Shown here in pieces: positions 1 to 10,643 of a stretch of 32,000 nucleotides of DNA; positions within the stretch are counted from its first letter, which is position 1; each line of letters opens with the position of its first letter. The stretch lies in the NCBI RefSeq assembly GCF_007748075.1, contig NZ_CP036280.1, positions 3,450,001-3,482,000 on the forward strand, written 5' to 3'. Both the position numbers and the translations under genes were made by a program. Below the pieces are notes generated by a model. The model had not been told where the DNA came from and searched no databases. It saw nothing but the letters and a program-made list of their open reading frames with translations. Source of the DNA: Mucisphaera calidilacus. GTDB taxonomy: Bacteria > Planctomycetota > Phycisphaerae > Phycisphaerales > Phycisphaeraceae.

Positions 1-855
1 CTCCTTGAGGTTGTAGTGGGGGTCACGCAGACGCTGCTCCTCACGCGGGTGCGTGAAGAACGACAGCTCCAGCAGCACCGCCGGCACCTTCGTGTAACGC
101 ATCACGCCAAAGCCGCTCTCGTACATCAGCTGATCCGACAGCAAAGGCGACGTCAGACCCGCCTGATACGTCTGCATCGTCCGGAACGTGTTGAACGCGA
201 TGTGCCGCGCCACGTCCAGCTCAACCTCCGCCCAGTCCGACTCGCCGTGGTACCAGATCGACGTGAAGTTCGCCGTCGGCCGAGACGCGTTGTGATGAAT
301 CGAAATAAACAGGTCCGCACCCACGCCGCCGTCCGGCCGCTCAATGTTGTTCGCAAACTCCGCACGCCGCTTGAGCGTCCCCTTCACCGCATCGTTCGCC
401 ACCTCGGAGGTCTCGCCCTCACGCGTCAGATGAACCACGCAACCCGCCTGCTCCAGAAGCTCTCGCAGCAAAAACGCCACACGCAGGTTCATCTCCGCCT
501 CACGCACGCCCGTCGGGCCACGCTTGTAACCCGCCACGTCCGCCTTGCCGCCATGCCCCGGGTCCAGCACGATCACCATCCCCTCGAGGTACTTCTCAGC
601 AGGGTGCCTCGGGATCGGCAGGTAAACCCCGTCCGGGTCCCACGCGTCACGATCCTGCAGCCGCGCCATCGCCTCCTCCAGCGGCGCCGGCTCCCAACCC
701 TCCTCGCCGAACGCCGGCGGCTCCACCACCACCGGCTCAGGTTCCGGCTCCGGCATCGGCTTGGGCTGACACGCAAACAACGAGAACACCAGTCCAACGG
801 CAACAAGACCGAAAAAAGCGGCTCGCAGCGAACGGAAGGGGTAGTTTGTGGGCAT
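1..855 (-). CDS. N-acetylmuramoyl-L-alanine amidase (Amidase_3 / AmiC-like) lipoprotein; C-terminus runs off the window start
   Basis: Absent from the ORF track because no stop lies inside the window. My minus-strand translation from ATG (cat 853-855), in the frame ending exactly at nt 1, gives MPTNYPFRSLRAAFFGLVAVGLVFSLFAC (lipobox) ... MVIVLDPGHGGKADVAGYKRGPTGVREAEMNLRVAFLL ... DLFISIHHNASRP ... VPAVLLELSFFTHPREEQRL. The + ORF 16..918 is its Arg-rich antisense shadow. Confidence 0.85.
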   Translation of the reverse strand, partial: MPTNYPFRSLRAAFFGLVAVGLVFSLFACQPKPMPEPEPEPVVVEPPAFGEEGWEPAPLEEAMARLQDRDAWDPDGVYLPIPRHPAEKYLEGMVIVLDPGHGGKADVAGYKRGPTGVREAEMNLRVAFLLRELLEQAGCVVHLTREGETSEVANDAVKGTLKRRAEFANNIERPDGGVGADLFISIHHNASRPTANFTSIWYHGESDWAEVELDVARHIAFNTFRTMQTYQAGLTSPLLSDQLMYESGFGVMRYTKVPAVLLELSFFTHPREEQRLRDPHYNLKE

Positions 856-881
856 GGCTTGCCTCCGGGCGAAGTCTTACA

Positions 882-889
882 TAAGAATA
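882..889 (-). promoter_or_regulatory. Candidate -10-like element (minus strand reads CCTATTCTTAT) 26 nt upstream of the amidase ATG
   Basis: TAAGAATA on the + strand. The same 8-mer recurs at 3601-3608 and 8013-8020, each 26-41 nt upstream of a minus-strand start codon. Confidence 0.3.
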
Positions 890-940
890 GGTCTACACTG
901 TATCGCGTTGCATCCTAACCCGTCATCGTGGAGGTTGTTC

Positions 941-2323
941 ATGTCACGTCTTCTCATCCTCTGTCTGGTGCTGATCATGAGTCCACTTGTCCGAGCCGAG
1001 GCCCAGCCCGAAGTCCGCGGCACCTGGATGACCACCACCGCCAACGACGCCATCGCCGACCCCGCCAACACCGCCGAGAGCATGAAACGCCTCCGCGCCA
1101 TCGGCCTCAATACCGTCTACGTCGAGACCTGGAAGAACGGCTACACCCAGTTCCCCTCCCGGGTCCTGCTCGACACCGTCGGCGTCGACCGGCGGCCCGC
1201 CCTCGTCAAGGCCGACCCCAGCGACTCCGACGAGAGCGCCGCCTCCGCCGGCCGCGACCTGCTCCAGGAAACCCTCATCGAGGCCCACCGCAACGGACTC
1301 ATCTACGTCGCGTGGTTCGAGTACGGCTTCATGGCCTCTTATAAAGACACCGACAACCACCTCCGACGCCTCAAGCCCGAGTGGCTCACCAACACCGCCG
1401 AAGGTGAGCAGGTCTCCAGCCAGAACCCCTTCGTCTGGATGAACCCGCTCCACCCCGAGGTCCGCGACTTCCTCATGGGCATCATGCTCGAGGCCGTCGA
1501 CAAGTACGACCTCGACGGCGTCCAGCTCGACGACCGCATCGCCTGGCCCGTGACCATGGGCTACGACCCCTACACCATCGAGCAGTACAAGCTCGAGCAC
1601 GACGGCGCCGCGCCGCCCGCCGATCCGCGCGACCCGGACTGGGTCCGCTGGCGTGCCGAGAAGGTCGGCGACTTCGCCGAGCGCTTCTACCGCGAGCTCA
1701 AGCAGAAGCGGCCGCACCTGCTGGTTTCGATCAGCCCGGCGATCTATCCCTGGAGTCTGGAGAACTACGCGTGCGACTGGAAGACGTGGTCGCGGCGGGG
1801 TTGGATGGATGAGTACCTGCCGCAGATATACCGCTTCAATTACGAGACTTATGAGCGTGACTGGCCGGCTCAGATGGACGCGGCGGGCCCGGACCGGCTG
1901 ATGGACCTGATCGCGGGCATCCGCGTGGTGGGCGAGGGGCCGGACACGACGTGGCCGGAGATGGTGCAGAAGATGAACCTGCCCCGCACGACCGGCGCGG
2001 GCGGTCACTGCCATTGGTTCAGCCGGGGCGTGCTCGATGTCTATGAGCAGCAACTCACTGAATTTTATGATGTTGCGAACGAGGGGCACGCGCCGCACCC
2101 CAGGCTCGGCAGCCACTGGCGGCCGCTGCCGGTGGTGGCTGAGGCGGACGATCAGGACCTCAGGCTCTGGCGGGTGAACGTGACGACGCCCGGGAAGTAC
2201 CGCGTGATCATGCACGATGGCGAGGCGTGGTCGGTGGTGGAGAGCCGGTTCTTTTACGCGGGCGAGGCGGAGCTGGAGATCGAGAACGCGGCGCGTGTTG
2301 AGTTGCTGGTTGACCGCCGCTGA
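941..2323 (+). CDS. Secreted glycoside-hydrolase-like family 10 (GHL10/DUF187, YngK-like) protein
   Basis: ORF 848..2323, with the start moved to ATG 941 (GGAGG at 929-933), which gives the signal peptide MSRLLILCLVLIMSPLVRAEA. VRGTWMTT, NTVYVETW and GVQLDDRIAWP motifs are present. It aligns with the paralog at 6412..7971 (FAERFYRELKQKRPHLLVSISP vs FIQRFYTQLKEQSPKVRFGISP). Confidence 0.8.
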   Translation: MSRLLILCLVLIMSPLVRAEAQPEVRGTWMTTTANDAIADPANTAESMKRLRAIGLNTVYVETWKNGYTQFPSRVLLDTVGVDRRPALVKADPSDSDESAASAGRDLLQETLIEAHRNGLIYVAWFEYGFMASYKDTDNHLRRLKPEWLTNTAEGEQVSSQNPFVWMNPLHPEVRDFLMGIMLEAVDKYDLDGVQLDDRIAWPVTMGYDPYTIEQYKLEHDGAAPPADPRDPDWVRWRAEKVGDFAERFYRELKQKRPHLLVSISPAIYPWSLENYACDWKTWSRRGWMDEYLPQIYRFNYETYERDWPAQMDAAGPDRLMDLIAGIRVVGEGPDTTWPEMVQKMNLPRTTGAGGHCHWFSRGVLDVYEQQLTEFYDVANEGHAPHPRLGSHWRPLPVVAEADDQDLRLWRVNVTTPGKYRVIMHDGEAWSVVESRFFYAGEAELEIENAARVELLVDRR

Positions 2324-2350
2324 TCCGGCAGGGCGTGCGCACGACGTGAC

Positions 2351-2405
2351 AAAAACCCAATACTTTGCGCCGTTTTACGTCTAAAAAGCGTGTGCGCAAA
2401 GTATT
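2351..2405 (-). terminator. Long hairpin plus U-tract, candidate intrinsic terminator for the minus-strand URO-D-family gene
   Basis: Perfect 12-bp inverted repeat AATACTTTGCGC (2359-2370) / GCGCAAAGTATT (2394-2405). On the minus strand the stem is followed by GGGTTTTTG (A-run 2351-2355 on +). The 23-nt loop is unusually large. Confidence 0.45.
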
Positions 2406-2406
2406 T

Positions 2407-2428
2407 CGAGTCGTTTTCGACTCGTTTT
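2407..2428 (+). terminator. Rho-independent terminator for the + strand GHL10 gene
   Basis: CGAGTCG (2407-2413) TTTT CGACTCG (2418-2424) followed by TTTT (2425-2428). This is a perfect 7-bp stem with a 4-nt loop and a T-run, about 85 nt after the stop at 2323. Confidence 0.6.
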
Positions 2429-2452
2429 GGTCCGTTTTGGGTCGTTTTGGGT
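2411..2452. repeat. Helically phased tandem CGTTTT(G)G units (4 copies)
   Basis: CGTTTT starts at 2412, 2423, 2433 and 2443 (spacing 11/10/10 bp): tcgttttcgac tcgttttggtc cgttttgggt cgttttgggt. On minus-strand RNA these read as CCCAAAACG repeats. Confidence 0.7.
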
Positions 2453-2565
2453 CGAAATCGCGATTTTTTGTGCGCACCAATCGCGACCAAGGGTCGCCTT
2501 TGTGCGCGGCCGGGCTTACGTTTTGAACGGCCTTCGCGTTAATCTGGGGGATGCTGTTGCGGCGG

Positions 2566-3570
2566 TCAGGTCTGTTGTTGTTTGGCCTCGTCGATGAAGG
2601 CGAGCATGTTTTCGAGGGAGACGTCGCCTTCGACGGCGTGTGCGGGTGAGAAGATGTAGCCGCCGGCCCGGCCCATGTCGAGGAGTTTTCGCGACTCGGC
2701 GCGGACGTCATCGGGCGTGCCGTAGGGCAGGGTTTGTTGTGTGCTGAGTCCGCCCCAGAACGCGAGTCGGCCGTGGTACTGGTCGTGGAGTGCGTGGACG
2801 TCCATGGCCTCGGGCTGGAAGGGGTTGAAGCAGTTGAGGCCGATGCCGATGAGGTCGTCGAAGAGTTCGTCGACGTCACCACAGGAGTGGATGAACTGGT
2901 GGAGTCCGGCGTCTCGGGCGACGGCGTACATGCGTTTGAGGCGGGGGTAGAAGAATTCCTTCCAGATGGGGTATCCCATGATGAGTCCGCTTTGCTGTCC
3001 CCAGTCGTCGCCGAAGTAGACGGCGTCGATGTCGTAGGTGGTGGCTTTGCGGACCTGCTCGATGTTGTAGTCGGCGATGGCGTCGAGGAGCTGGTGGACG
3101 AAGTCGGGGTTCTCGATGAAGTCCATCATGAGGTTTTCCATGCCTCGGAGGGTCCATGCTCTTTCGTAGAGGGAGAACCCGATGCAGTAGAGCCTGTAGC
3201 AGTCGGGGTGGCTGTTGATTCTGGTTTCGATGTCCTCGAAGAACCTGGGGTCGTGCGGGTCGGGGAAGTCGTAGTTGTCGAGGGTGGGTTCGGGCAGGGG
3301 TTCTTTGCGGACGAATCCAATGTCTTTTTCGACTTTACGGTCCCAGACGACGCCGAAGGCGTCCTGATAGAGGTCGTTGTCGATCTGTGTGAAGAATCCG
3401 ACGTCGCTGCCGAGCTCGAGGATATGTCCGCCTGTGGCTTCGAGGAGGTCCTCGTTGCCGTAGTGCTTTTTGAGCTTGTCGGCGGACTCGACGGTGAAGC
3501 GGTAGGACCAGGGCGTGTAGGGGAGTTCCTGGTGCTGGAGTGCCTGTTTGACGATGTCGCGTTTGGTCAT
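2566..3570 (-). CDS. Uroporphyrinogen decarboxylase (URO-D) family protein (methyltransferase/decarboxylase-like)
   Basis: ORF 2566..3927 trimmed to ATG at 3568-3570 ([14 protein letters not shown]...). The 119 codons upstream are Pro/His-rich junk that crosses the repeat and G4 region. The body ([56 protein letters not shown]) resembles the URO-D/MtaA fold. Confidence 0.8.
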
Positions 3571-3600
3571 GGTATGGGCTTCCGGGGGGTGTTTTCGCTG

Positions 3601-3608
3601 TAAGAATA
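3601..3608 (-). promoter_or_regulatory. Candidate -10-like element (minus strand reads GGTATTCTTAC) 30 nt upstream of the URO-D-family ATG
   Basis: TAAGAATA on the + strand, part of the recurrent motif (see 882-889 and 8013-8020). Confidence 0.3.
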
Positions 3609-3834
3609 CCAATTCATATCGATTTGTGTGGTGTTGGCGGCACGGATCCTGGGGAGCCGGTTCGAGGTCCTCGGGGTGGGGGGTGGTGGGGCACACATAG
3701 CAGACGATTCTCTGTCGAGAACCGGTCTGCAATGTGCCACCCCGGTGGTTCGGTATGGCTTGAGGTGGTTGAGGTACAGGATTCTGTGGGCAGCCCTTGC
3801 CTTCGGCTGCGGTCTGTCCACAGCCACCCGGAGT

Positions 3835-3859
3835 GGGGAGTGGGGAGTGGGGTGTGGGG
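3835..3859 (+). other. Canonical G-quadruplex motif GGGG-AGT-GGGG-AGT-GGGG-TGT-GGGG
   Basis: G4 runs at 3835-3838, 3842-3845, 3849-3852 and 3856-3859. The last run overlaps the first 2 nt of the left 46-bp direct repeat, and a G7 run follows at 3876-3882. Confidence 0.6.
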
Positions 3860-3903
3860 TGTGTCAGTTGTTGGCGGGGGGGTCGAGTTCGGAGGTGATT
3901 CGG
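3858..3903. repeat. Left copy of a perfect 46-bp direct repeat (orphan duplicate of the GNAT gene 3' end)
   Basis: GGTGTGTCAGTTGTTGGCGGGGGGGTCGAGTTCGGAGGTGATTCGG is identical 46/46 to 5846-5891. Identity breaks on both sides (3857 g vs 5845 t; 3904 a vs 5892 t). Confidence 0.95.
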
Positions 3904-3923
3904 AGCGGATGCGGCAAGGGCGC

Positions 3924-4979
3924 TCAATAGCGTCTAATAGCCGCCAGTAGAAGTTTGTCGCTAAACATAGCTTGTTTGCGTTGCGCGGCATCTGCACTGT
4001 AGGGCCAGTGGGCGATTCCCTCTCGGATGCTTTGCAAAGTGGGCTCGCATTTCTCTGCGTCGATCAGCCAACCAACGGTAGCCAGTGCTTCCATGCCAAG
4101 AGGTGACTGGAAACCGTCGATGAAAGCATCTGCAGCATCAATGGCTTCGACCCAGTGCTTCTTCTCGCCGCCCTGAAGGAAGGCTCTGAGCTTCTGGTCG
4201 TGTGAAGGAGCGAAGTGGATGGTGTCCAACGGGGTTGAGTCCGCAAGACGTTTCTCGCAGTGCAGGTAGCTGCCGTCGAGTTTGTCCAAGAGATGTCGGA
4301 GATTGTTGGAGTAGGGGCCGTATTTCTGAGCGGTGAAGTCGAGTTTCAGGGGATTCTTGAGCCCCATCTGATTGATCACACGGTTAAGCACCCAAGCCAG
4401 TTTCTGGATTTCGAGTATTGAGCAGTCGAGCCCAAGTATCTCGTAGCGACGGATCATCTCTGCGATCATCGCACGGGGTGGTGTCAGTTCTTCAAGACCT
4501 GTAGTTTTGCTGACATTACGGTAAGCTTGGCTGGGTTCATAGACCAGAATTCTGACGTTCTGGAGATCGCTTAGGTGTTGTTCGATGAGCGGTCGCACGT
4601 CGGCCCAATCGAGTTTGCCGTTGCCACTGCCAAGCGGTGGGATACCAATGGATTTGATGTTCAGGTCGAGGATGACTTGGCGCAGGTCGGCAAGCCCCTG
4701 ATCAATCCATTCGATTTTTGAGGGTGGACGCCAGTGTTTCTTAGTCGGGAAGTGAATCACCCACTTTGGGTTGTGTAGTTGTCCGGTTTGCGTGACGAAC
4801 ATCTTGCCCGTTAGAACCTCGTTGCGGTCGCAGGCCGTCTTGTAGGCGTTGAAGATGTCGGGGAATCTGTCCTTAAACATCAGGGCGATGCCCTTGCCCA
4901 TGACGCCGACGGTGTTGACGGTGTTGACAAGTGCCTCGGTGTCGGCTTCCAGCAGATTGCCTGAGGTGTAGTGAATCAT
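3924..4979 (-). CDS. darG: DarG antitoxin: DNA ADP-ribosyl glycohydrolase (N-terminal macrodomain plus DarG C-terminal domain)
   Basis: [43 protein letters not shown]...[21 protein letters not shown]...[13 protein letters not shown] is nearly collinear with the macrodomain of M. tuberculosis DarG (Rv0060) as I recall it. Its ATG lies 1 nt after the darT stop (TGAcATG). Confidence 0.95.
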
Positions 4980-4980
4980 G

Positions 4981-5649
4981 TCAGAAGTACCATGATGGCA
5001 ATGTTTTAACGGCTAGATTCAAGCTGGCGTTTGCGGTGTCGTTTGCAATCTGTTCGGTGGTTGACTCATTGTAGCACGCAATACCGAGTAGGGCATCGAT
5101 GGGTACGTGGCGGTATGCGAGCGCTTCGGCCTGATAGCGGTTGAATTTCTCAGGGCGTTCTGGGTCTCGTCTGAAGTCTTTTGCCTGAAGCAGTGGCCAA
5201 TCGATCTTGTCGAGATCATCGACAGAGTTGTAGCAGGTGCTTTCCTGCATGTATGCGTGGCCGTCGTAGAAGACGAAGGGGATTTTGAGCTCGGCTAATC
5301 GGTGCACGGAAGAGGTGAGGATCACGATCTCGTGATTCGGACGCTGGATTACGCCATGGTATCCGGTTTTGATGTTGTACATCATGACTGAGTAAGGCGT
5401 GAAATAGAACGGTATGTAGTCTGCGAGCGTCCCCCTCGGTTCGGCTTCTACCGTGTGGCTTGACCGTTTGAGGATTAACTCCTGACTGCCGATGGGCACG
5501 AAGTTCAAATCTTGCTTTGGGCTATTCATGCAGTGCAGACCGTTATCCAGAAGCCATGGCACGTTATTGACGTGCGTAATGCGAAATATTCTCCCATCTT
5601 TTGCGTTCAGGCCTGCCATTTCAGTTCGGCACCATCTCGCTTCCAGCAT
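4981..5649 (-). CDS. darT: DarT toxin: ssDNA thymidine ADP-ribosyltransferase (DUF4433)
   Basis: RIFRITHVNNVPWLL, LADYIPFYFTPYSVMMYNI, IPFVFYDGHA, IDWPLLQAKDF, RYQAEALAY (catalytic QAE Glu motif) and the PSWYF C-terminus match the Thermus aquaticus DarT pattern (HITHIDNL, YVPFYF, FVFTDRH, KQAEFLV, KDWYY). An alternative start is ATG 5617-5619 (MAGLNAKDGR). Confidence 0.93.
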   Translation of the reverse strand: MLEARWCRTEMAGLNAKDGRIFRITHVNNVPWLLDNGLHCMNSPKQDLNFVPIGSQELILKRSSHTVEAEPRGTLADYIPFYFTPYSVMMYNIKTGYHGVIQRPNHEIVILTSSVHRLAELKIPFVFYDGHAYMQESTCYNSVDDLDKIDWPLLQAKDFRRDPERPEKFNRYQAEALAYRHVPIDALLGIACYNESTTEQIANDTANASLNLAVKTLPSWYF

Positions 5650-5783
5650 GTGGTTGTCCCCGGCGGTAAGGGTGTTTTGTAGCGGTCTGTGGCAGATACC
5701 GCAATGGAGCTTTGCGGGAAGGAGCTCTCGGCTGATGTCTGTGTGAAGTGTGCTGTGATCGGATGCGGTAGTCCTTCGACTCG

Positions 5784-5819
5784 GCTCAGGATCTTGCCCC
5801 TTCGGCCTTGCTCAGGATC
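5784..5819 (-). promoter_or_regulatory. Two 10-bp direct repeats GCTCAGGATC upstream of darT (candidate operator/promoter region)
   Basis: GCTCAGGATC occurs at 5784-5793 and 5810-5819 (26-bp period), 135-170 nt upstream of the darT ATG and inside the island. Confidence 0.25.
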
Positions 5820-5845
5820 AGGCTTGTCGCGAGGAGGCGGGCGGT

Positions 5846-5891
5846 GGTGTGTCAGTTGTTGGCGGGGGGGTCGAGTTCGGAGGTGATTCGG
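5846..5891. repeat. Right copy of the 46-bp direct repeat (functional 3' end of the GNAT gene)
   Basis: Identical to 3858-3903. It contains the last 13 codons ([15 protein letters not shown] end) and the stop codon (TCA 5852-5854 on +) of the GNAT CDS plus 6 nt downstream. Confidence 0.95.
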
Positions 5892-6349
5892 TTGGCGTAG
5901 ATGCCGGGTGAGGAGCCGGGGATTTCGGTGGCGTTGCAGGCGCGTGCGTAGAAGTCGGCGGGTCCGACGCCTCCGATGATGCCGTAGGCGTAGCCTTCGT
6001 GCCAGAGTGCCCAGAGTGCGGCGAGGAGGAGGGCTTTGCCGACGCCTTTGCCGCGGGCGGTGTCGGCGACGCCTGTGGGCCCGAAGTAGCCTTTGCGGGT
6101 GACGTCGTAGCAGGCGAAGCCGATGATCTGTTCGTTTTCGACGGCGATGAAGCAGCTGACGGGTGTGTTGGAGAAGGCGGCGTTGCACTCGTCGGCCCAG
6201 GCGGGCTGGAACTCGTCGTTGGCGAATCGGAGGAGGTGTCGTCGTTCGTGGGCGCTGATGCGTCGGATGACGATGCCCTGGTCTGCGAGGTTGCGGATCA
6301 GCTCGCGGTGATCGGGCAGTTCGTAGAGTTTGACGAGCATGTCGGGCAT
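5852..6349 (-). CDS. GNAT family N-acetyltransferase
   Basis: ORF 5852..7051 trimmed to ATG 6347-6349 (MPDMLVKLYELPD...). The acetyl-CoA-binding signature VADTARGKGVGKALLLAAL is present. The upstream part of the track ORF is an Arg-rich shadow of the GHL10 gene. Confidence 0.85.
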   Translation of the reverse strand: MPDMLVKLYELPDHRELIRNLADQGIVIRRISAHERRHLLRFANDEFQPAWADECNAAFSNTPVSCFIAVENEQIIGFACYDVTRKGYFGPTGVADTARGKGVGKALLLAALWALWHEGYAYGIIGGVGPADFYARACNATEIPGSSPGIYANRITSELDPPANN

Positions 6350-6411: not shown

Positions 6412-7971
6412 TTATTGGGGGAGTTCGAGGATGACCTTGTCGCTGGCGATGCCGAGTTCGTCGACGACGAAGGTGACGACGGCCTCGACGCCGAGGTTGG
6501 GGATGTCGGTCATGTCCTTGTCGGTGGCGGGCATGTTGGCGAGGCCCATGCGTGAGATGGCGGGGAGGATGGTGTTTTCCCAGTTGCCGTCGCGTTTGAC
6601 CTGGATGACCCACCAGCGAGCGTTTTCGAGGGATCGGTGTCCTGCGACGACGCGGATGCCGTCGTCGGCGATGATGTTGACGGTGGCGGTAGGAGCCTGG
6701 GGTTGTGTGCCGTCGGAGAGCCACGGGCTGGCGGGGACGAGTGCGGGTTTGGCGTAGACGGTGTTGGCGAGGTTTTCGCGGAGTTCGGGGTTTTTGGTGA
6801 CGGACTTGGCGGAGAAGTGGACGTGTCCGTCGGCGCCCTCGATGTGCCGGATCCACTGGATCTGGTAGTTGATTTCGTTCTCGTCGAACTGGTTGCCGGT
6901 GCGGTAGGTTCCGAGTCCGGGCCAGAGGTTTCGTCCGGTGGGGTTCTGCTCGGACCACCAGTTCAGGAGTGCGACGAAGCTCTGCTGGGGTTTGGCGATT
7001 TCCCAGTAGAGTTGGGGCGTGTAGTAGTCGACCCAGCCTTCGACGAGCCACTTGCGTGCGTCGGCGTAGAGTCCTTCGTACTGGTTGAAGCCCTGGATCT
7101 GTTCGGGATGACCGGGTTTCCAGATGCCGAAGGGGCTGATGCCGAAGCGGACCTTGGGGGATTGCTCTTTGAGTTGTGTGTAGAAGCGTTGGATGAAGTC
7201 GTCGACGGCGGCGCGTCGGAAGTCGCTGATGCCGAGGGTTCCGCCTGCGTCGGTGTAGGCCTTGTAGGTTTGGGCGTCGGGGAAGTCGACGATCTGGCCG
7301 TCGTCGCCTCGGACCTGGTAGGGGTAGAAGTAGTCGTCGATGTGGATGCCATCGACGTCGTAGCGTTTGGCGACGTCGAGGAAGACGTCGAGCGAGCGTT
7401 GTTTAACTTTTTCTTCGGCGGGGTTCATCCAGCGGTAGACGCCATACTGCGGGACGATGTCGGGGTCGGTGACGGCGATGTGGTCGTCGGTGAGGGGTGA
7501 TTTCTGGTTGGGGTGGAGGGCTCGGTAGGGGTTGAACCATGCGTGGAGTTCGAGTCCGCGTTTGTGGGCTTCGGCGCAGGCGAACTTGAGGGGGTCGTAG
7601 TAGGGTTCGGGTGCTTTGCCCTGTTCGCCTGTGAGGTAGTGCGACCAGGGTTCGAGGGGTGAGTCGTAGAGCGCGTCGGCGTGGGGTCGCACCTGGAAGA
7701 CGACGGCGTTCATGTTGAGTGCGGCGAATTCGTCGAGGTATTCGATGAGTTCGGCTTTTTGTTGTTCGACGGGGAGGCCGGGTTTTGAGGGCCAGTCGAT
7801 GTTGGCGACGGTGGCGATCCAGGCGGCGCGGAATTCGCGGGGCACTTCGGGGACGCCGAGTTCTTTGAGCGCGGCGTCGTGGGTGCTGAGTTCGTCGGTC
7901 GGCGCGGTGGAGCAGCCGAGCGGGAGTGCGGCGATGAGGGTGAGGGCGAGGAGGGTGGCGAGGTGTCGCAT
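6412..7971 (-). CDS. Glycoside-hydrolase-like family 10 (GHL10/DUF187) lipoprotein, paralog 2
   Basis: ORF 6412..8130 trimmed to ATG 7969-7971 (MRHLATLLALTLIAALPLGC lipobox). FRAAWIATVANIDWPSKPGL, MNAVVFQVRPHADALY and LELHAWFNPYRA are classic GHL10 motifs. Confidence 0.88.
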   Translation of the reverse strand: MRHLATLLALTLIAALPLGCSTAPTDELSTHDAALKELGVPEVPREFRAAWIATVANIDWPSKPGLPVEQQKAELIEYLDEFAALNMNAVVFQVRPHADALYDSPLEPWSHYLTGEQGKAPEPYYDPLKFACAEAHKRGLELHAWFNPYRALHPNQKSPLTDDHIAVTDPDIVPQYGVYRWMNPAEEKVKQRSLDVFLDVAKRYDVDGIHIDDYFYPYQVRGDDGQIVDFPDAQTYKAYTDAGGTLGISDFRRAAVDDFIQRFYTQLKEQSPKVRFGISPFGIWKPGHPEQIQGFNQYEGLYADARKWLVEGWVDYYTPQLYWEIAKPQQSFVALLNWWSEQNPTGRNLWPGLGTYRTGNQFDENEINYQIQWIRHIEGADGHVHFSAKSVTKNPELRENLANTVYAKPALVPASPWLSDGTQPQAPTATVNIIADDGIRVVAGHRSLENARWWVIQVKRDGNWENTILPAISRMGLANMPATDKDMTDIPNLGVEAVVTFVVDELGIASDKVILELPQ

Positions 7972-8012
7972 GGAGAGTTCCTCTGATTGTTTCAGAACCG
8001 ATAGAAGAACCA

Positions 8013-8020
8013 TAAGAATA
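8013..8020 (-). promoter_or_regulatory. Candidate -10-like element (minus strand reads GGTATTCTTAT) 41 nt upstream of the GHL10 paralog-2 ATG
   Basis: TAAGAATA on the + strand, the third copy of the recurrent motif. Confidence 0.3.
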
Positions 8021-8099
8021 CCAGAGAGGCCGTCGGGTGTGTCGGCGTGTGGTTCGACAAGGGGGGTTGGGGTGTCCATGATGGCGGCTGGAGTTTGTG

Positions 8100-9470
8100 A
8101 TGCTGGAATACATCGCGGGTTTTCGGCCATCGGCTCAGCCGCTGATGACGCGGCCGACGTACGAGCGTGAGTTGTGGACGGCGATGGCGATGCCGATCGC
8201 GGTGTCGATGGTCGAGGGCGGCGTGGTGGGGATTCTGGCGAAGAAGGCTTTTGATGTTTCGCCGATCGTTTTCGCGGCGATCCAGGCGGCGCCGATGTTC
8301 GCGAACGTGACGAGTCTGGGTTGGGCGATGCTGGCGCGGGGCAGGCCGAAGGTGCCGTTCATCACGGGGATGATGGTGGTGGTGCTGTTGTGCGTGGCGG
8401 GGATCGCGTTGTTGCCGACGGGTGGCGTGTTGGGTTCGTGGTTGCTGGCGTTGCTGGTGATCGCGTCTCGGTGTCTGCTGGCGGGTGTGGTGACGCTCCG
8501 GAGCGTGGTGTGGCGGAACAATTATCCGCGTCACGTTCGGGCGCAGATCACGGGTCGTTTGTCGCTGGTGGTGAGTCTGGTGGTGGCGGTGGCGCCGGTG
8601 GTGGGGTACGGCTTTCTGGATCGCGGGCCGGAGAACTTCCGGATTCTGTATCCGGTGGCGGCGTTGCTGGCGGTGGTGGGTGTGGTGTCGTTTTCGCGGG
8701 TGCGTTTGCGTCAGGAGGCGAGTCTGCTGGCGTACGAGAATCGGTCTGATGTGGAGCCGGTGCCGAAGGGTGAGACGGGCGCGGTGTATGAGTATGAGGC
8801 GTTGCCACGGGACACGTTCTGGTCGGTGTTGCGGAAGGACGGTGCGTTTCGGACGTACATGTTCTGGCAGTTCATCGCGGGGATGTCGATGATGTCGGGC
8901 GAGACGGTGGTGGTGTACGTGATTGCGGAGCAGACGGCGGGCTGGTCGTATGAGTATCTGCTGTCGGTGTTGTTGTCGACGTCGGTGCCGATGCTGGTGG
9001 CGGTGGCGTTGATGCCGACGTGGGCGCGTTATCTGGATCGGGTGCACATCGCGAAGTTCCGGACGCGTCAGGGCTGGTTCTGGGCGTTGGCTCAGGGATT
9101 GAATCTGATGGGCGCGTTGCTGGGTTCGTTGTCGCTGATCGGTTTGGCGCGTGCGGTGATCGGGATGGTTCGTGCGGGTGGGATGCTGGCGTGGAACCTG
9201 GGTCACAATGATTTTGCGGACCGTCGGCTGGTGTCGATTTACATGGGGATCCACGTGACGCTGACGGGTGTGCGTGGCGCGATTGCGCCGTTCCTGGGGA
9301 TTCTGCTTTATGCGGGGTGGTCGGAGCGTGATTTGGGGGGTGGCGTGGTGCTGCCGGGGTTCGAGGGATTGGGGAGTTGGTTTTTTGCGGTGTCGTTGGG
9401 ATTGGCGGTGCTGGCGTGGGCGGGTTTTGCCCGGATGGCGCGGGAGGCTGAGTCGGTGGCGGGGTCATGA
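8100..9470 (+). CDS. MFS-type multi-pass membrane transporter
   Basis: The 457-aa ORF (GTG 8097 / ATG 8100) has about 12 hydrophobic segments and short Arg-rich loops (WRNNYPRHVRAQITGR, WARYLDRVH) in an MFS-like layout. The substrate is unknown. Confidence 0.7.
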   Translation: MLEYIAGFRPSAQPLMTRPTYERELWTAMAMPIAVSMVEGGVVGILAKKAFDVSPIVFAAIQAAPMFANVTSLGWAMLARGRPKVPFITGMMVVVLLCVAGIALLPTGGVLGSWLLALLVIASRCLLAGVVTLRSVVWRNNYPRHVRAQITGRLSLVVSLVVAVAPVVGYGFLDRGPENFRILYPVAALLAVVGVVSFSRVRLRQEASLLAYENRSDVEPVPKGETGAVYEYEALPRDTFWSVLRKDGAFRTYMFWQFIAGMSMMSGETVVVYVIAEQTAGWSYEYLLSVLLSTSVPMLVAVALMPTWARYLDRVHIAKFRTRQGWFWALAQGLNLMGALLGSLSLIGLARAVIGMVRAGGMLAWNLGHNDFADRRLVSIYMGIHVTLTGVRGAIAPFLGILLYAGWSERDLGGGVVLPGFEGLGSWFFAVSLGLAVLAWAGFARMAREAESVAGS

Positions 9471-10091
9471 GGGGTTGATGGCGAGGTGGGCGAGGAATTC
9501 GAGGTTGTTGCCCTTGCCGCCTCGGACGGGTGAGGGGATGAGGTCTTTGAGTTGGATCTGGTCGTTGGCGAGCGTTTCTGCGACGTCGTGGCTGATGCGT
9601 TGGGCTTCGGCGTCGGAGAGTTGGTGTTGTCCGGATTCGTAGTGGGGTTTGATGAGGGGGATGATGGTGGTGGGCTGGTCGTGTCGCAACCATTGGAGCG
9701 CGGCGGGGAGGGCTTTGTTGAGTTTGGTCCAGCCGAGGTCGATGGTGACGAGGTGCACGCCTTGGAAGTCGTCGAAGAGCTTGGCGGTTTTGGGTCGGTG
9801 GTGGGGTCCGTTGGGGTCGAGGTGGAGCGCGTTTTGTCGTTCGAGGGTGATGACGTTGGGGTGTTGTCGGAGTTTCCAGGCGAGTTCGCCATAGGCGGTA
9901 TCGACGGCGTAGACGCGTGCGGCTTGGCGTTGGATGAGGCAGTCGGTGAATCCGCCGGTGGAGCAGCCGAGGTCGGCGCAGGCGAGTCCGGCGACGTCGA
10001 TGTTGAAGGCGGTGAGGGCGGCTTCGAGTTTGGCGCCGGCGCGGGAGACGAATCCGCCGGAGGATTCTGAAGGGGTGGATTCGCTGGTCAT
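9465..10091 (-). CDS. TlyA-like / FtsJ-fold rRNA 2'-O-methyltransferase lacking the N-terminal S4 domain
   Basis: FVSRAGAKLEAAL...ADLGCSTGGFTDCLIQRQAARVYAVD (SAM motif I)...LVTIDLGWT...LIKPHYE...RGGKGNLEFL matches the TlyA methyltransferase core. Confidence 0.75.
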   Translation of the reverse strand: MTSESTPSESSGGFVSRAGAKLEAALTAFNIDVAGLACADLGCSTGGFTDCLIQRQAARVYAVDTAYGELAWKLRQHPNVITLERQNALHLDPNGPHHRPKTAKLFDDFQGVHLVTIDLGWTKLNKALPAALQWLRHDQPTTIIPLIKPHYESGQHQLSDAEAQRISHDVAETLANDQIQLKDLIPSPVRGGKGNNLEFLAHLAINPS

Positions 10092-10100
10092 GCCTTTATC

Positions 10101-10643
10101 ATGGTAGGGATGATGCAGCGGATTTGTGTGGTTGGGCCTTGCGGGTCAGGCAAGAGTTGGCTGGCGTCTCGTCTGGGCGAGCGTCTGGGTTTGCCGGTGG
10201 TGCACATGGATCGGCTGTACTGGAAGCCGGGTTGGGTGGAGGGGACGCAGGAGGAGCTTCGTGCGAAGCTGGAGGAGGTGGTGGCGGGGGAGCGTTGGGT
10301 GATTGACGGGAATTATGCGGGGACGCTTGGGATGCGGCTGGCGCGAGCGGACGCGGTGGTGTGGCTGGACTACGGGAGGTGGGTGTATCGGCGGCGGTTG
10401 TTGTGGCGTCAGGTGGCGGGTCGTTTTCGGGGTCGGCCGGACATGGCGGAGGGGTGTCGGGAGACGTTTGATCCGGAGTTCTTGAGGTACGCGTGGGATT
10501 TCGAGAAGACGGGTGGTGTTGCGCTGCGTGAGGCGTTGGCGGGTGTTCCGGCGGGTGTTGAGGTGTTGCGTTTTCGTCGGCCGGGTGAGGCGGCGGGGTG
10601 GTTGGGGGAGGGTCAGAAGTTCAGGCCGGCGCCGAGGGCGTAG
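10101..10643 (+). CDS. P-loop NTPase, adenylate-kinase-like / topology-modulation (FlaR-like) protein
   Basis: The Walker A motif RICVVGPCGSGKSWLA is followed by VHMDRLYWKPGW...WVIDGNY, typical of this small kinase family. The start may be ATG 10110 or 10113 (MQRI). The C-terminal 31 nt overlaps the convergent OMP gene. Confidence 0.75.
   Translation: MVGMMQRICVVGPCGSGKSWLASRLGERLGLPVVHMDRLYWKPGWVEGTQEELRAKLEEVVAGERWVIDGNYAGTLGMRLARADAVVWLDYGRWVYRRRLLWRQVAGRFRGRPDMAEGCRETFDPEFLRYAWDFEKTGGVALREALAGVPAGVEVLRFRRPGEAAGWLGEGQKFRPAPRA

Follow-up and report, generated by a model that had tools for sequence, protein, structure and literature searches.

The darTG locus analysed here lies in the genome of the marine planctomycete Mucisphaera calidilacus, within a stretch of 32 kb that was examined as a whole and is hereafter called the window. 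Two direct repeats of 46 bp, at 3858-3903 and 5846-5891, are identical at 46/46 positions, in agreement with a preliminary description of this DNA. The repeats enclose darT, darG, a leader of 196 nt (5650-5845), a short stretch of 20 nt (3904-3923) and nothing else. All features given below are on the minus strand, including darG, darT and the neighboring GNAT acetyltransferase gene, except for a glycosidase-like gene on the far side of the locus. The GNAT gene (5852-6349; Pfam Acetyltransf_1/7) is the conserved anchor gene of the locus, and repeat copy 1 (5846-5891) forms its functional 3' end, spanning from 37 coding nt ahead of the stop codon through 6 nt after it (frame checked). This copy thus holds one base, 12 complete codons, the stop codon and 6 nt beyond, and not the last 13 codons as originally counted. 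Repeat copy 2 (3858-3903) is an orphan, displaced GNAT 3' end, followed by native DNA (3571-3857) that includes the upstream region of a URO-D-like gene (2566-3570; Pfam URO-D, 9e-23). The native segment contains a G-rich run of 7-mers at 3830-3857 and a hairpin, and no similarity to the relatives was found for it. The conserved far flank of this variable interval is the GHL10 glycosidase-like gene (848-2323, plus strand; Pfam GHL10). At three or fewer mismatches the 46-mer was found twice in the window, while none of 100 shuffled sequences gave any match (0/100); within the sequence searched, the 46-mer is not a dispersed repeat.

The darT gene (4981-5649) encodes a protein of 222 aa from the ATG at 5649, with an alternative start at the ATG of MAGLNA at 5619, and was identified as the single-stranded DNA ADP-ribosyltransferase toxin by both Pfam DarT (4e-53) and PADLOC (5e-65). 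The Pfam profile PF14487 (DUF4433) is spanned in full, from position 1 to 201 of 201. The protein also matches Thermus DarT (7OMV, 4e-20), and its Glu in the motif QAEAL aligns to the Ala in QAAFL of the deposited 7OMV chain, a position taken here to be the catalytic residue E160, which was substituted in the protein used for crystallisation. The darG gene (3924-4979) encodes the macrodomain ADP-ribosyl glycohydrolase antitoxin of 351 aa (PADLOC DarG, 1.8e-118; Pfam Macro, 1e-22), matching the DarG macrodomain of M. tuberculosis (5M3I, 3.5e-56); the lysine K80 in PTKKHW is invariant in an alignment of 25 sequences, and NCBI names the identical protein DarG. The two genes are adjacent and co-oriented, darT being upstream with its stop codon one base from the darG start, and the TGAcATG junction noted before was located correctly, at 4977-4983. 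The toxin modifies thymidine in single-stranded DNA by ADP-ribosylation, which the macrodomain of DarG reverses. Judged by these profiles, which agree with the gene identities first proposed, darTG of Mucisphaera is an intact toxin-antitoxin or abortive-infection module of the DarTG2 type, with a macrodomain antitoxin. The nearest DarG in a search of 5.8 billion proteins was 73% identical, no second copy of the cassette was found, and the core sequence gave no matches in metagenome or viral collections, nor did a core 27-mer in metagenomes. With no sign of autonomous mobility either, the picture of a self-contained insertable cassette was not upheld.

The interval between the GNAT and GHL10 genes was compared among relatives. 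L089, L090 and L001 carry syntenic GNAT orthologues (83, 73 and 69% identity, respectively) and also a syntenic GHL10 gene. The site is empty in L001 and in L090/L091, where the GNAT gene is followed by a spacer of 160-200 nt and then GHL10, confirming the insertion at the GNAT 3' end that had been proposed. In the closest relative, L089, the order is GNAT (83% aa identity), orf88, a 5' remnant of darT and a PanA-type pair, that is, 14 codons of darT remain at the same locus beside a different toxin-antitoxin pair. This remnant, CQTDMAGLNAKDAR, was aligned with CRTEMAGLNAKDGR at E 0.001, with 83% nucleotide identity over 35 nt. The interval is therefore variable, being occupied by darTG and the URO-D-like gene in Mucisphaera, by orf88, the darT remnant and the PanA pair in L089, and by nothing in L001, L090 and L091. 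The URO-D-like gene, missing from L001, L089 and L090, is a second variable occupant with host-like composition (GC3 0.83, skew -0.64). Relatives that lack darTG never have both copies of the repeat, a finding that does not support a duplication older than the cargo, and no duplicate of a GNAT 3' end like that at 3858-3903 is present at any other GNAT locus among the 83 examined.

The 20 nt between darG and copy 2 consist of a trailer of 9 nt past the darG stop codon (3915-3923) and 11 nt, CCGCATCCGCT (3904-3914), of a different GNAT allele. Joined to the first CCGAA of copy 2, the vestige makes up the 16-mer CCGCATCCGCTCCGAA, which is 11 nt out of register and identical to positions 4110-4125 of the L089 GNAT gene, coding for Arg-Ile-Arg-Ser-Glu (BLAST E 0.008, in a small search); L090 matches 12/12 of the vestige region. 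The identity between the two 46-mers does end abruptly on both sides, as described before, but on the cargo side of the left copy the adjoining 3904-3914 is itself GNAT-derived, from the other allele. CCGAA is shared by the vestige, in its continuation in the L089 allele, and by the start of the repeat, representing a microhomology of 5 nt at one junction only. Since both copies of the 46-mer are identical in Mucisphaera, their allelic origin is deduced from the 11-nt vestige and from the other loci described below. An out-of-register vestige requires two successive events, or misaligned gene conversion.

The GC content of the cargo is 0.537 as compared with 0.631 +/- 0.019 for non-overlapping segments of the same size, and its GC3 is 0.63-0.65 as compared with 0.78-0.87, supporting the view that it is compositionally distinct and foreign. 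It is not balanced between G and C as had been stated: the GC skew is +0.08 to +0.24, and the third-position skew, -0.31, is about half the host value. The skew of the cargo thus stands about halfway to that of the host, while that of homologues embedded in restriction-modification (R-M) operons is near zero. Given this half-ameliorated skew, the darT remnant that L089 retains at this site and the vestige of an older GNAT allele beside the orphan copy, recent acquisition is not supported. The leader contains no open reading frame for which homologues were found, but two direct repeats of 21 nt (5773-5793 and 5799-5819). The segment 5680-5620 shares homology with the degraded hsdS 3' end that forms the leader of L081, the closest DarTG; for the first 165 nt of the leader the homology test gave p of about 0.02, short of established homology. 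No recognisable remnants of hsdS, hsdR or integrase genes were detected in a search of the 196-nt and 20-nt non-coding parts.

The repeat-flanked layout is not confined to Mucisphaera. Among further DarTG loci with enough flanking sequence, 10 of 71 have direct repeats on both sides, the shortest 25 nt and the longest at least 290 nt, so that about one in seven related DarTG loci share this layout, whereas only 1/415 and 1/46 of the controls did (2/461 in all; odds ratio 38, p 5e-8). The repeats of these 10 loci are locus-specific and unrelated to each other, and their distance to darT ranges from 77 to 1326 nt and that from darG to the repeat from 14 to 1287 nt. The end of an abutting gene, as is the GNAT 3' end in Mucisphaera, is duplicated in at least four other independent loci, the hsdR 5' end in L081, L098 and L143 and the truA 3' end in L125. 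In the closest DarTG, found in two samples (L081/L082), a repeat of 59 nt (55/59 identical) corresponds to the first 20 codons of hsdR. In L081 and L143 the start of the repeat already lies inside the first hsdR codon. The L098 repeat begins at codon 3, and the two hsdR codons ahead of it read start-Ser in both copies but fall outside the repeat as detected. For truA in L125 the duplication covers at least 290 nt of the 3' part, and one repeat among the DarTG loci surveyed is 135 nt long. Between the repeat copies of L081, L098, L143 and L125, 23 of the 29 mismatches are at codon position 3 and 23 of the 29 are synonymous (binomial p 5e-7). From this predominance of third-position differences, the copies at these four loci diverged as functional alleles in different lineages. 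L150 is at odds with a simple gene-end picture because its repeat lies inside a gene, 370 nt from the stop codon. About 80% of stand-alone DarTG loci carry no repeats within 1.5 kb, and none of four plasmid examples carries repeats.

The six closest DarG contexts are all inside type I R-M operons, some of which are decaying. At sites other than R-M operons, the ragged ends of the cargo are R-M fragments, including hsdS' and a 78-aa hsdR' in L150 (E 6e-6 and 7e-26), hsdS' and hsdR' in L132, and hsdR' in L125.

The locus was also examined for features of mobility. The ends of the segment carry no terminal inverted repeats, the 46-mer folds no better than its shuffles (z +0.2 to +0.4) and has no dyad symmetry, and no tRNA was found at the locus. 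Integrase or transposase domains of Pfam were detected neither between the repeats nor in the 20 other open reading frames of the window, and no integrase was found among about 30 flanking open reading frames tested at metagenomic repeat-positive DarTG loci. The Pfam scan and the comparison of ends thus bear out that the cassette has no recombinase and no inverted repeats. Elsewhere, L132 has one DDE transposase about 2 kb outside its repeats, L081 shows a faint integrase-like domain (Phage_int_SAM_4, among precomputed Pfam hits) at the contig end, and the R-M-DarTG locus L085 includes an integrase- or excisionase-like gene (HTH_17). Three classes of element were considered and rejected: an integron gene cassette, given the lack of an attC-type fold in the 46-mer and of any integrase found in the window; a transposon or insertion sequence, given the lack of inverted repeats at the ends and of a transposase in the window, and repeats whose length varies between loci, 25 nt in one case and at least 290 nt in another; and a Xer-dependent element (IMEX or pdif module), given no dif-like pattern above chance and no 11-6-11 dyad in the 46-mer.

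One account, for which we see about as much reason for belief as for doubt, is that darTG entered together with a piece of the neighboring gene, through one homologous exchange and one illegitimate join, and thereby displaced the end of the resident gene. The incoming DNA would have consisted of darTG and a copy of the GNAT end acquired in an earlier, related host. Host recombination would have made one exchange inside homologous GNAT sequence and one illegitimate join at a few matching bases (CCGAA in this case); a circularised segment entering by single crossover would leave an identical product. The functional GNAT gene would retain a complete 3' end and the other copy would be shifted downstream as an orphan, and on this ground the 46-bp repeats are read as the resident and incoming copies of one gene end. 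A type I R-M operon, where DarTG of this clade is usually found, may be the ultimate source of the foreign segment of 1.94 kb. Precise loss of the module would follow from recombination between the repeats, and toxin addiction may select against such deletion, so preserving the repeat-flanked state. The repeats are thus probably neither att sites nor a target-site duplication but the scar of host recombination. Of the two mechanisms offered in the preliminary description, integration by a recombinase acting in trans and capture through homology, the data gathered here favor the latter. As to the length of the homology, 46 nt is short for RecA-dependent exchange, a point against the proposal, and a linear fragment could anchor in the whole GNAT gene. 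Searches of protein, metagenome and viral collections gave no donor, circle or second copy of the cassette, which also counts against the proposal, as do the identity of the two copies in Mucisphaera, the two events needed for the vestige, the intragenic repeat of L150 and the many stand-alone or plasmid DarTG loci with no repeats.

The 46-mers could instead be attL and attR of a small element that brought a replacement GNAT 3' end by site-specific integration, the tyrosine recombinase being located elsewhere (trans-mobilised, CIME-like) or lost as a larger R-M-DarTG island decayed to its addictive core. Duplication of a gene 3' end with an empty site in relatives is the classic signature of an island, the darT remnant of the same clade in L089 could reflect repeated targeting, and synonymous differences between copies would equally arise with a functional gene end brought in by an element. 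Decay is seen in R-M operons that surround darTG, and integrase- or excisionase-like genes are present at some R-M-DarTG loci, namely L081 and L085. We nevertheless consider this reading unlikely. Neither the window nor the surroundings of nine other repeat-flanked loci yielded an integrase; homologous cassettes are bordered by unrelated repeats (GNAT, hsdR, truA and others) of very unequal length, with cargo ends that are not conserved; and in three independent cases the repeat lies at the very start of hsdR, as predicted for a limit of homology. The 46-mer itself lacks dyad symmetry and fold, and the non-coding parts of the cargo lack remnants of hsdS, hsdR or an integrase. The original assignment of the repeats as attL/attR is therefore not retained.

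A still less likely course of events is that darTG is an old resident, predating the split of Mucisphaera and the L089 lineage, that the pair of repeats goes back to that early insertion, and that gene conversion from the GNAT copy, misaligned at its 5' edge, recently made the orphan identical. In keeping with this, L089 retains a darT remnant at this site, the cargo is partly ameliorated, and the orphan changes at CCGAA from the ancestral to the present GNAT allele; without conversion, an old orphan under no selection would hardly be expected to show 46/46 identity. The L089 remnant, however, is 81% identical to the L081 darT and 74% to that of Mucisphaera (hand count over about 42 aligned nt), and since it is equally close to L081 darT its orthology to the Mucisphaera gene is unsupported. 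The leaders also differ, and orf88 is present in L089 but missing in Mucisphaera. This course explains the identity of the copies and leaves the origin of the duplication unexplained, and is thus compatible with the one-homologous, one-illegitimate exchange proposed above and not a full alternative to it. Quite improbable, in our view, is a duplication in situ, in which ligation or copying (end joining or template switching) placed a foreign fragment in a staggered break or stalled fork and so duplicated 46 nt of one host sequence. Identical copies with sharp limits and the 5-nt microhomology at one junction would fit, but related loci hold different alleles (23/29 differences at codon position 3), repeats reach 135 and at least 290 nt, the hsdR cases repeat the very start of the gene, and the 11-nt vestige of the other allele is left without explanation. 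An artefact of assembly or a chance repeat is hardly credible. Nothing was found in its favor, while identical DarG and GNAT proteins are encoded on a 3,486,541-bp contig of M. calidilacus, taken as a finished isolate genome, shuffled sequences never matched (0/100), the same architecture was found in independent samples (L081/L082), and 46 nt fits no join available from either parental arrangement.

It is known that hotspots gather defence and toxin-antitoxin genes and that such genes are found "inserted" in type I R-M operons, but accounts of how they arrive without mobility genes are few. The orphan gene ends, allelic repeats and ragged R-M remnants of the Mucisphaera locus and ten similar ones point to a route that uses host enzymes only. 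On a more tentative level than the origin proposed for this one locus, it is possible that DarTG, and perhaps other addictive defence modules, spread between related genomes as recombinase-free segments that bring along the end of an adjacent conserved gene as an "address", with one homologous and one illegitimate exchange displacing the resident end, and that the repeat-flanked insertion persists since deletion would release the toxin. If true, this would provide a mechanism for the landing of darTG between hsdS and hsdR of type I R-M operons, where homology would be available on one side only because hsdS is hypervariable and hsdR conserved, and would account for pieces of R-M operons reaching housekeeping genes such as truA or the Mucisphaera GNAT gene. 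Such a route predicts RecA-dependent entry, homing to orthologous genes in relatives, and precise, toxin-counterselected deletion between the repeats. For annotators, direct repeats that duplicate a gene end are by themselves no proof of an integrase-driven element.

Several known systems resemble the Mucisphaera locus in part. The minimal mobile elements of Neisseria occupy a fixed interval in which alternative cargos are exchanged by double crossover in both flanks, leaving no repeats. An interval between conserved genes, with cargos that differ by lineage and are exchanged without mobility genes, is common to both, but the Mucisphaera interval carries repeats. In integrase-less, att-flanked elements (cis-mobilisable elements, CIMEs) and in genomic islands that duplicate a gene 3' end, there are likewise direct repeats of the end of the target gene, relatives with an unoccupied site and no recombinase in cis. 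DarTG cassettes differ from these by having no conserved att sequence, by their ragged ends and by repeat limits that coincide with homology limits; an att-flanked module whose recombination has been switched off may be the subject of PMC7721734. With respect to DarTG2 (Jankevicius 2016, PMC5179494; summary in PMC12255303), the position of the catalytic Glu, the DarG Lys motif, the C-terminal domain and the gene order are shared, the Mucisphaera proteins are ordinary, and the genomic setting alone differs, a stand-alone pair between two GNAT 3' ends. R-M-embedded DarTG, in the order hsdM-hsdS-darT-darG-hsdR (PMC5179494; EPEC island, PMC12255303), is the arrangement of all six closest homologues, in comparison with which Mucisphaera has no R-M genes or recognisable remnants, while part of its leader aligns to the hsdS-derived leader. 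In the passages searched of PMC5179494 and PMC12255303, orphan hsdR 5' ends upstream of darT such as those in L081, L098 and L143 go unmentioned. In E. coli, single crossover of circles gives duplications of the homologous segment of 109-950 bp (PMC3240628). Such Campbell-type integration likewise yields direct repeats of the homologous segment around the cargo without an element-encoded enzyme, but was shown with laboratory plasmids, and natural darTG circles have not been observed. At rhs and T6SS loci, displaced orphan 3' ends were attributed to homology-facilitated illegitimate recombination (PMC5361080, citing Jackson 2009, Poole 2011, and de Vries and Wackernagel 2002). The anchor in a conserved gene, the orphaned resident end, the lack of a dedicated recombinase and the nested remnants of successive events are all shared with the displacement at rhs, CDI and T6SS loci. 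In those systems a variable toxin domain and its immunity gene are displaced, whereas in Mucisphaera the gene end simply gave way to an almost identical copy, and the defence module carried along is unrelated to it; unlike rhs, CDI and T6SS loci, DarTG loci show displacement at gene 5' ends as well, as in the case of hsdR.

Two identical 46-bp segments in direct orientation (46/46 nt; 3858-3903 and 5846-5891) enclose the darTG pair of the window, as claimed in the preliminary description. An insertion without a recombinase of its own, also proposed there, is likewise borne out: besides darG (3924-4979, minus strand) and darT (4981-5649, minus strand), the DNA between the repeats consists only of a 196-nt leader and 20 nt past the darG stop codon. 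No third copy of the 46-mer was detected within the window with up to 3 mismatches allowed; shuffled sequences gave 0 matches. The GNAT reading frame (5852-6349, minus strand) ends within the right copy, which comprises one base and 12 codons of it, the stop codon and 6 nt past the stop. On its native side, the left copy adjoins a run of G-rich 7-mers (3830-3857; GGAGTGG three times, then GGTGTGG).

Both darT and darG were identified by Pfam, PADLOC and likeness to solved structures. The window DarT carries Glu at the position where the aligned 7OMV chain has Ala, which we take to be the catalytic E160 of DarT mutated for crystallisation, and the lysine motif of DarG is present. Since the antitoxin is a macrodomain, the module is predicted to be of the thymidine-modifying DarTG2 type, as this type is outlined in a family summary (PMC12255303). 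The two proteins are ordinary and already annotated, the NCBI name for the identical protein being DarG; the species itself, Mucisphaera calidilacus, has been described (PMC8882080). Two 21-nt direct repeats located 26 nt apart in the darT leader (5773-5793 and 5799-5819; GATCCTGAGC...CGAAGG on the coding strand) may represent an operator. Scanning of the region gave 0 sigma-70 consensus promoters and 5 terminator-like sites, all at 2407-3217 and not above shuffle expectation.

The cargo, that is, the DNA between the repeats, is distinct in GC content (0.537 against 0.631 +/- 0.019) and in GC3 (0.63-0.65 against 0.78-0.87), in agreement with the preliminary description, but it is not free of strand skew as had been supposed. 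Its third-position GC skew is -0.31, compared with -0.6 to -0.84 in host genes and about 0 in R-M-embedded DarTG homologues from similarly skewed genomes. The partial skew, together with a darT remnant in the closest related locus (L089), fits long residence in the clade followed by a recent exchange and does not fit a recent arrival from afar, leaving the earlier claim of recent acquisition unsupported. Over the whole window the extreme skew tracks the DNA strand and not the coding strand, with third-position GC skew of -0.6 to -0.84 in minus-strand genes and +0.68 in the plus-strand MFS gene; for most genes the coding strand is the C/A-rich strand, an unusual relation between skew and orientation. 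The sign of both GC and AT skew flips mid-gene at 1500-1700, inside the GHL10 gene at 848-2323 (third-position GC skew changes from -0.37 and -0.51 before the midpoint to +0.11 and +0.19 after it). The flip lies 2-4 kb from the darTG site and is absent from L089, and the gene order is the same as in the relatives; it could mark a leading/lagging switch, at an origin or terminus, or else the edge of an old inversion.

The order MFS - GHL10 - GNAT - interval - GHL10 - Amidase_3 is shared by three related genomes, the two GHL10 genes of the window being located at 6412-8130 (minus strand) and, beyond the interval, at 848-2323. In both L001 (GNAT 69% identical) and L090/L091 (GNAT 73% identical) the interval is empty, with nothing but 160-200 nt of spacer. 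L089, with GNAT identity to the window of 83% (amino acids) and 87% (nucleotides), carries in succession an ORF of 88 codons with host-like composition, a darT remnant of 14 codons from the 5' end (tblastn E 0.001, CQTDMAGLNAKDAR against CRTEMAGLNAKDGR; 83% identity over 35 nt) and, adjoining the remnant, a low-GC pair (L089 4430-5426) in which a 148-aa membrane protein accompanies an antitoxin with a Panacea/SocA domain. Given these empty, L089-type and window-type intervals, the GNAT-GHL10 interval is a variable spot with alternative cargo, and a darT of the same clade was once present at this spot in the sister lineage too. The L089 spot seems to have exchanged one toxin-antitoxin module for another. 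By hand count over about 42 aligned nt, the remnant is roughly 81% identical to the darT of L081, the closest DarTG locus, and roughly 74% identical to that of the window; because it is about as near to the one as to the other, either vertical inheritance or repeated arrival may account for it. No homologue of the 88-codon ORF was found in the window leader. A duplicate of the GNAT 3' end was absent from 83 other GNAT loci, and exact-protein look-ups with the window GNAT and DarG gave no matches, and hence neither other-strain variants nor empty sites from within the species.

The same interval of the window also contains a URO-D-like gene (2566-3570, minus strand) of fully host-like composition, which is absent in L001, L089 and L090 and around which no flanking repeats were found. 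In a check of co-transfer, nucleotide identity between the window and L089 was 87% for GNAT against 80% for the block on the GNAT side; on the GHL10/Amidase_3 side it was 72-74%, hinting that the two flanks of the interval may have different histories. Several TGCGCAC-type motifs are located in the spacer by the far GHL10 gene (window 2330-2510, L089 5590-5790), the two spacers otherwise aligning poorly. An MgtE gene lies between FtsJ and MFS in L090 and is missing from the window (junction at 9465-9470).

The left copy carries a trace of an earlier event. On the coding strand the orphan region reads ...TGA GCGCCCTTG CCGCATCCGCT and then, across the junction, CCGAATCACCTCCGAACTCGAC... Read on into the initial CCGAA of the repeat, the preceding 11 nt (3904-3914) give CCGCATCCGCTCCGAA, a stretch found unchanged in L089 GNAT, where it covers the codons for Arg-Ile-Arg-Ser-Glu; L090 agrees with the vestige-containing sequence at 12/12 positions. 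The GNAT gene of the window has CGA ATC ACC TCC GAA at the equivalent place, and its tail PPANN is unlike those of all relatives (PPIA, PPIE, PPTP). The darG-proximal end of the cargo thus carries a piece of a GNAT 3' end from another, ancestral-type allele, joined with an 11-nt shift of register through a microhomology of 5 nt (CCGAA). With this vestige of another allele, the left copy is no unaltered attachment site, and a GNAT 3' end already accompanied the cassette before the event behind the present junction. A one-step, out-of-register single crossover was dropped as an explanation, since it predicts an 11-nt deletion in GNAT and cannot yield both junctions.

No further copy of the cassette was detected in the protein, plasmid, phage, metagenome and viral collections searched. 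Among 5.8 billion proteins the nearest DarG is 73% identical, so no recent second copy or donor is at hand; nucleotide searches of plasmids and phages with the cassette gave only distant similarity to darTG coding sequence (65-74%), and there were 0 matches to a core 27-mer in metagenome contigs and 0 to a 21-mer in viral contigs. Each of the six close homologues examined for genomic context has hsdS on one side and hsdR on the other, in a type I R-M operon, an association with DarTG that is noted by Jankevicius et al. (PMC5179494). The R-M operon is decaying around an intact darTG in L093 and L094, consistent with a toxin-antitoxin pair outliving its R-M operon. The truncated genes beside darTG (L093 6490-6819; L094 9046-9447) are hsdS shortened to 109 aa and a 133-aa C-terminal piece of hsdR. 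In L081, and in L082 from another sample, a 59-nt direct repeat (55/59 identical) flanks darT-darG: the downstream copy is the hsdR start and the upstream copy an orphan spanning hsdR codons 1-20, with the 106-nt leader between orphan and darT being a degraded HsdS C-terminus. This layout is the mirror image of that of the window, with another gene's end involved. The window leader aligns to the L081 leader at 5680-5620, the alignment of its first 165 nt being marginal, and no significant hsdS, hsdR or other remnants were found in the window leader and trailer.

For a survey of such repeats, 80 further metagenomic DarTG loci were fetched via an alignment of 25 DarG proteins, and 1.5 kb upstream of darT was compared with 1.5 kb downstream of darG in the 72 loci with enough flank, including the window. 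Ten independent loci besides the window carry flanking direct repeats of 90-100% identity: L081/L082 (59 nt), L098 (135 nt), L103 (84 nt), L105 (25 nt), L122 (50 nt), L125 (at least 290 nt), L132 (53 nt), L133 (60 nt), L143 (41 nt) and L150 (at least 43 nt). The same test was positive for 1/415 pseudo-cassettes in unrelated loci and 1/46 in the DarTG contigs themselves (odds ratio 38, Fisher p 5e-8). About 14% of the surveyed DarTG loci are situated between two copies of a neighbouring gene end, which we read as allelic; no repeats within reach were detected at about 4/5 of the stand-alone DarTG loci, nor in 4 finished darTG plasmids. The repeats are unrelated from locus to locus, and conserved limits of the cargo are likewise lacking. 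In L081, L098 and L143 it is the hsdR start that is duplicated, the repeat beginning within the first hsdR codon in L081 and L143 and at codon 3 in L098; the two L098 copies have different first and second codons, but in each these encode start-Ser. L125 duplicates the 3' part of truA over at least 290 nt and, like the window, has the displaced copy downstream of darG. Where the site is not an R-M operon, ragged R-M remnants are still present in the cargo: an HsdS C-terminal and a 78-aa HsdR N-terminal remnant in L150, both HsdS and HsdR remnants in L132, and an HsdR remnant in L125. Neighbours of the repeat-positive loci include genes of housekeeping type (among them mdh, truA, ffh, transporters and a GT20 glycosyltransferase) as well as several ORFs that match no Pfam family. 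Tests of about 30 ORFs flanking the repeat-positive metagenomic loci revealed no integrase; L132 has one DDE transposase about 2 kb outside the repeats, and a faint integrase-like domain (precomputed Pfam) lies at the L081 contig end. Two further observations were made in surveyed loci, a PanA homologue directly after darG (L140 1785-2288) and another direct repeat pair downstream of darTG (L146, about 7300-10200; 103 nt, 90% identical, about 2.7 kb apart).

An artefact is excluded. The origin of the two copies can be judged from four loci in which the repeat falls in the coding part of a gene that can be recognised. Differences between copies fall at codon position 3 in 23/29 cases, and 23/29 are synonymous (binomial p 5e-7). 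The copies at these loci thus diverged as functional gene ends in different lineages, one copy being resident and the other brought with the cargo. Duplication of the target in situ is disfavoured, because an orphan decaying after such an event would not show a third-position excess, and repeats of 135 and at least 290 nt speak against it as well. Synonymous differences would also be given by an element that supplies a functional gene end, and the 46-bp repeats of the window could on that account have been made by an integrase acting in trans or lost through decay. This model, however, leaves unexplained the unrelated repeats and the ragged ends around homologous cargo; with the vestige at the left copy, they leave the attL and attR sites of a self-contained cassette, as first described, without support. 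As for other element types, folding of the 46-mer ruled out an attC-like site, terminal inverted repeats of transposon type were not found, and no dif-like site of Xer type was found.

Because the hsdR segments lie at the gene start, the repeats vary in length, the cargo ends are ragged and a recombinase is lacking, we favour entry by host recombination, to which we give an even chance of being the true mechanism. One exchange within a homologous gene piece would be combined with one illegitimate join, the substrate being either linear, in which case the process is homology-facilitated illegitimate recombination, or a fragment that was circularised and entered by single crossover; both routes would leave the same footprint. 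The hsdR start is where homology between donor (darG-hsdR) and recipient (X-hsdR) begins. Homology on one side only is to be expected in type I R-M operons, in which hsdS is hypervariable and hsdR conserved, and also at the window locus, as the DNA downstream of GNAT differs between lineages. For the window we infer that the two copies would be the incoming and resident copies of one gene end, and either may be the resident one. The vestige at CCGAA would require a previous round that placed an ancestral-allele orphan beside darG; the perfect identity of the copies would reflect a last event with a same-species donor or a recent conversion of the left copy from the right.

The repeat footprint and its recurrence across DarTG loci are new here, and offer a testable, recombinase-free route by which DarTG becomes embedded into R-M operons and beside housekeeping genes. 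Both the linear and circular routes have been shown experimentally; in E. coli, single crossover was the commoner and duplicated 109-950 bp (PMC3240628). At rhs and T6SS loci, 3' ends displaced as orphans, like the orphan GNAT end of the window, are known and have been explained likewise (PMC5361080).
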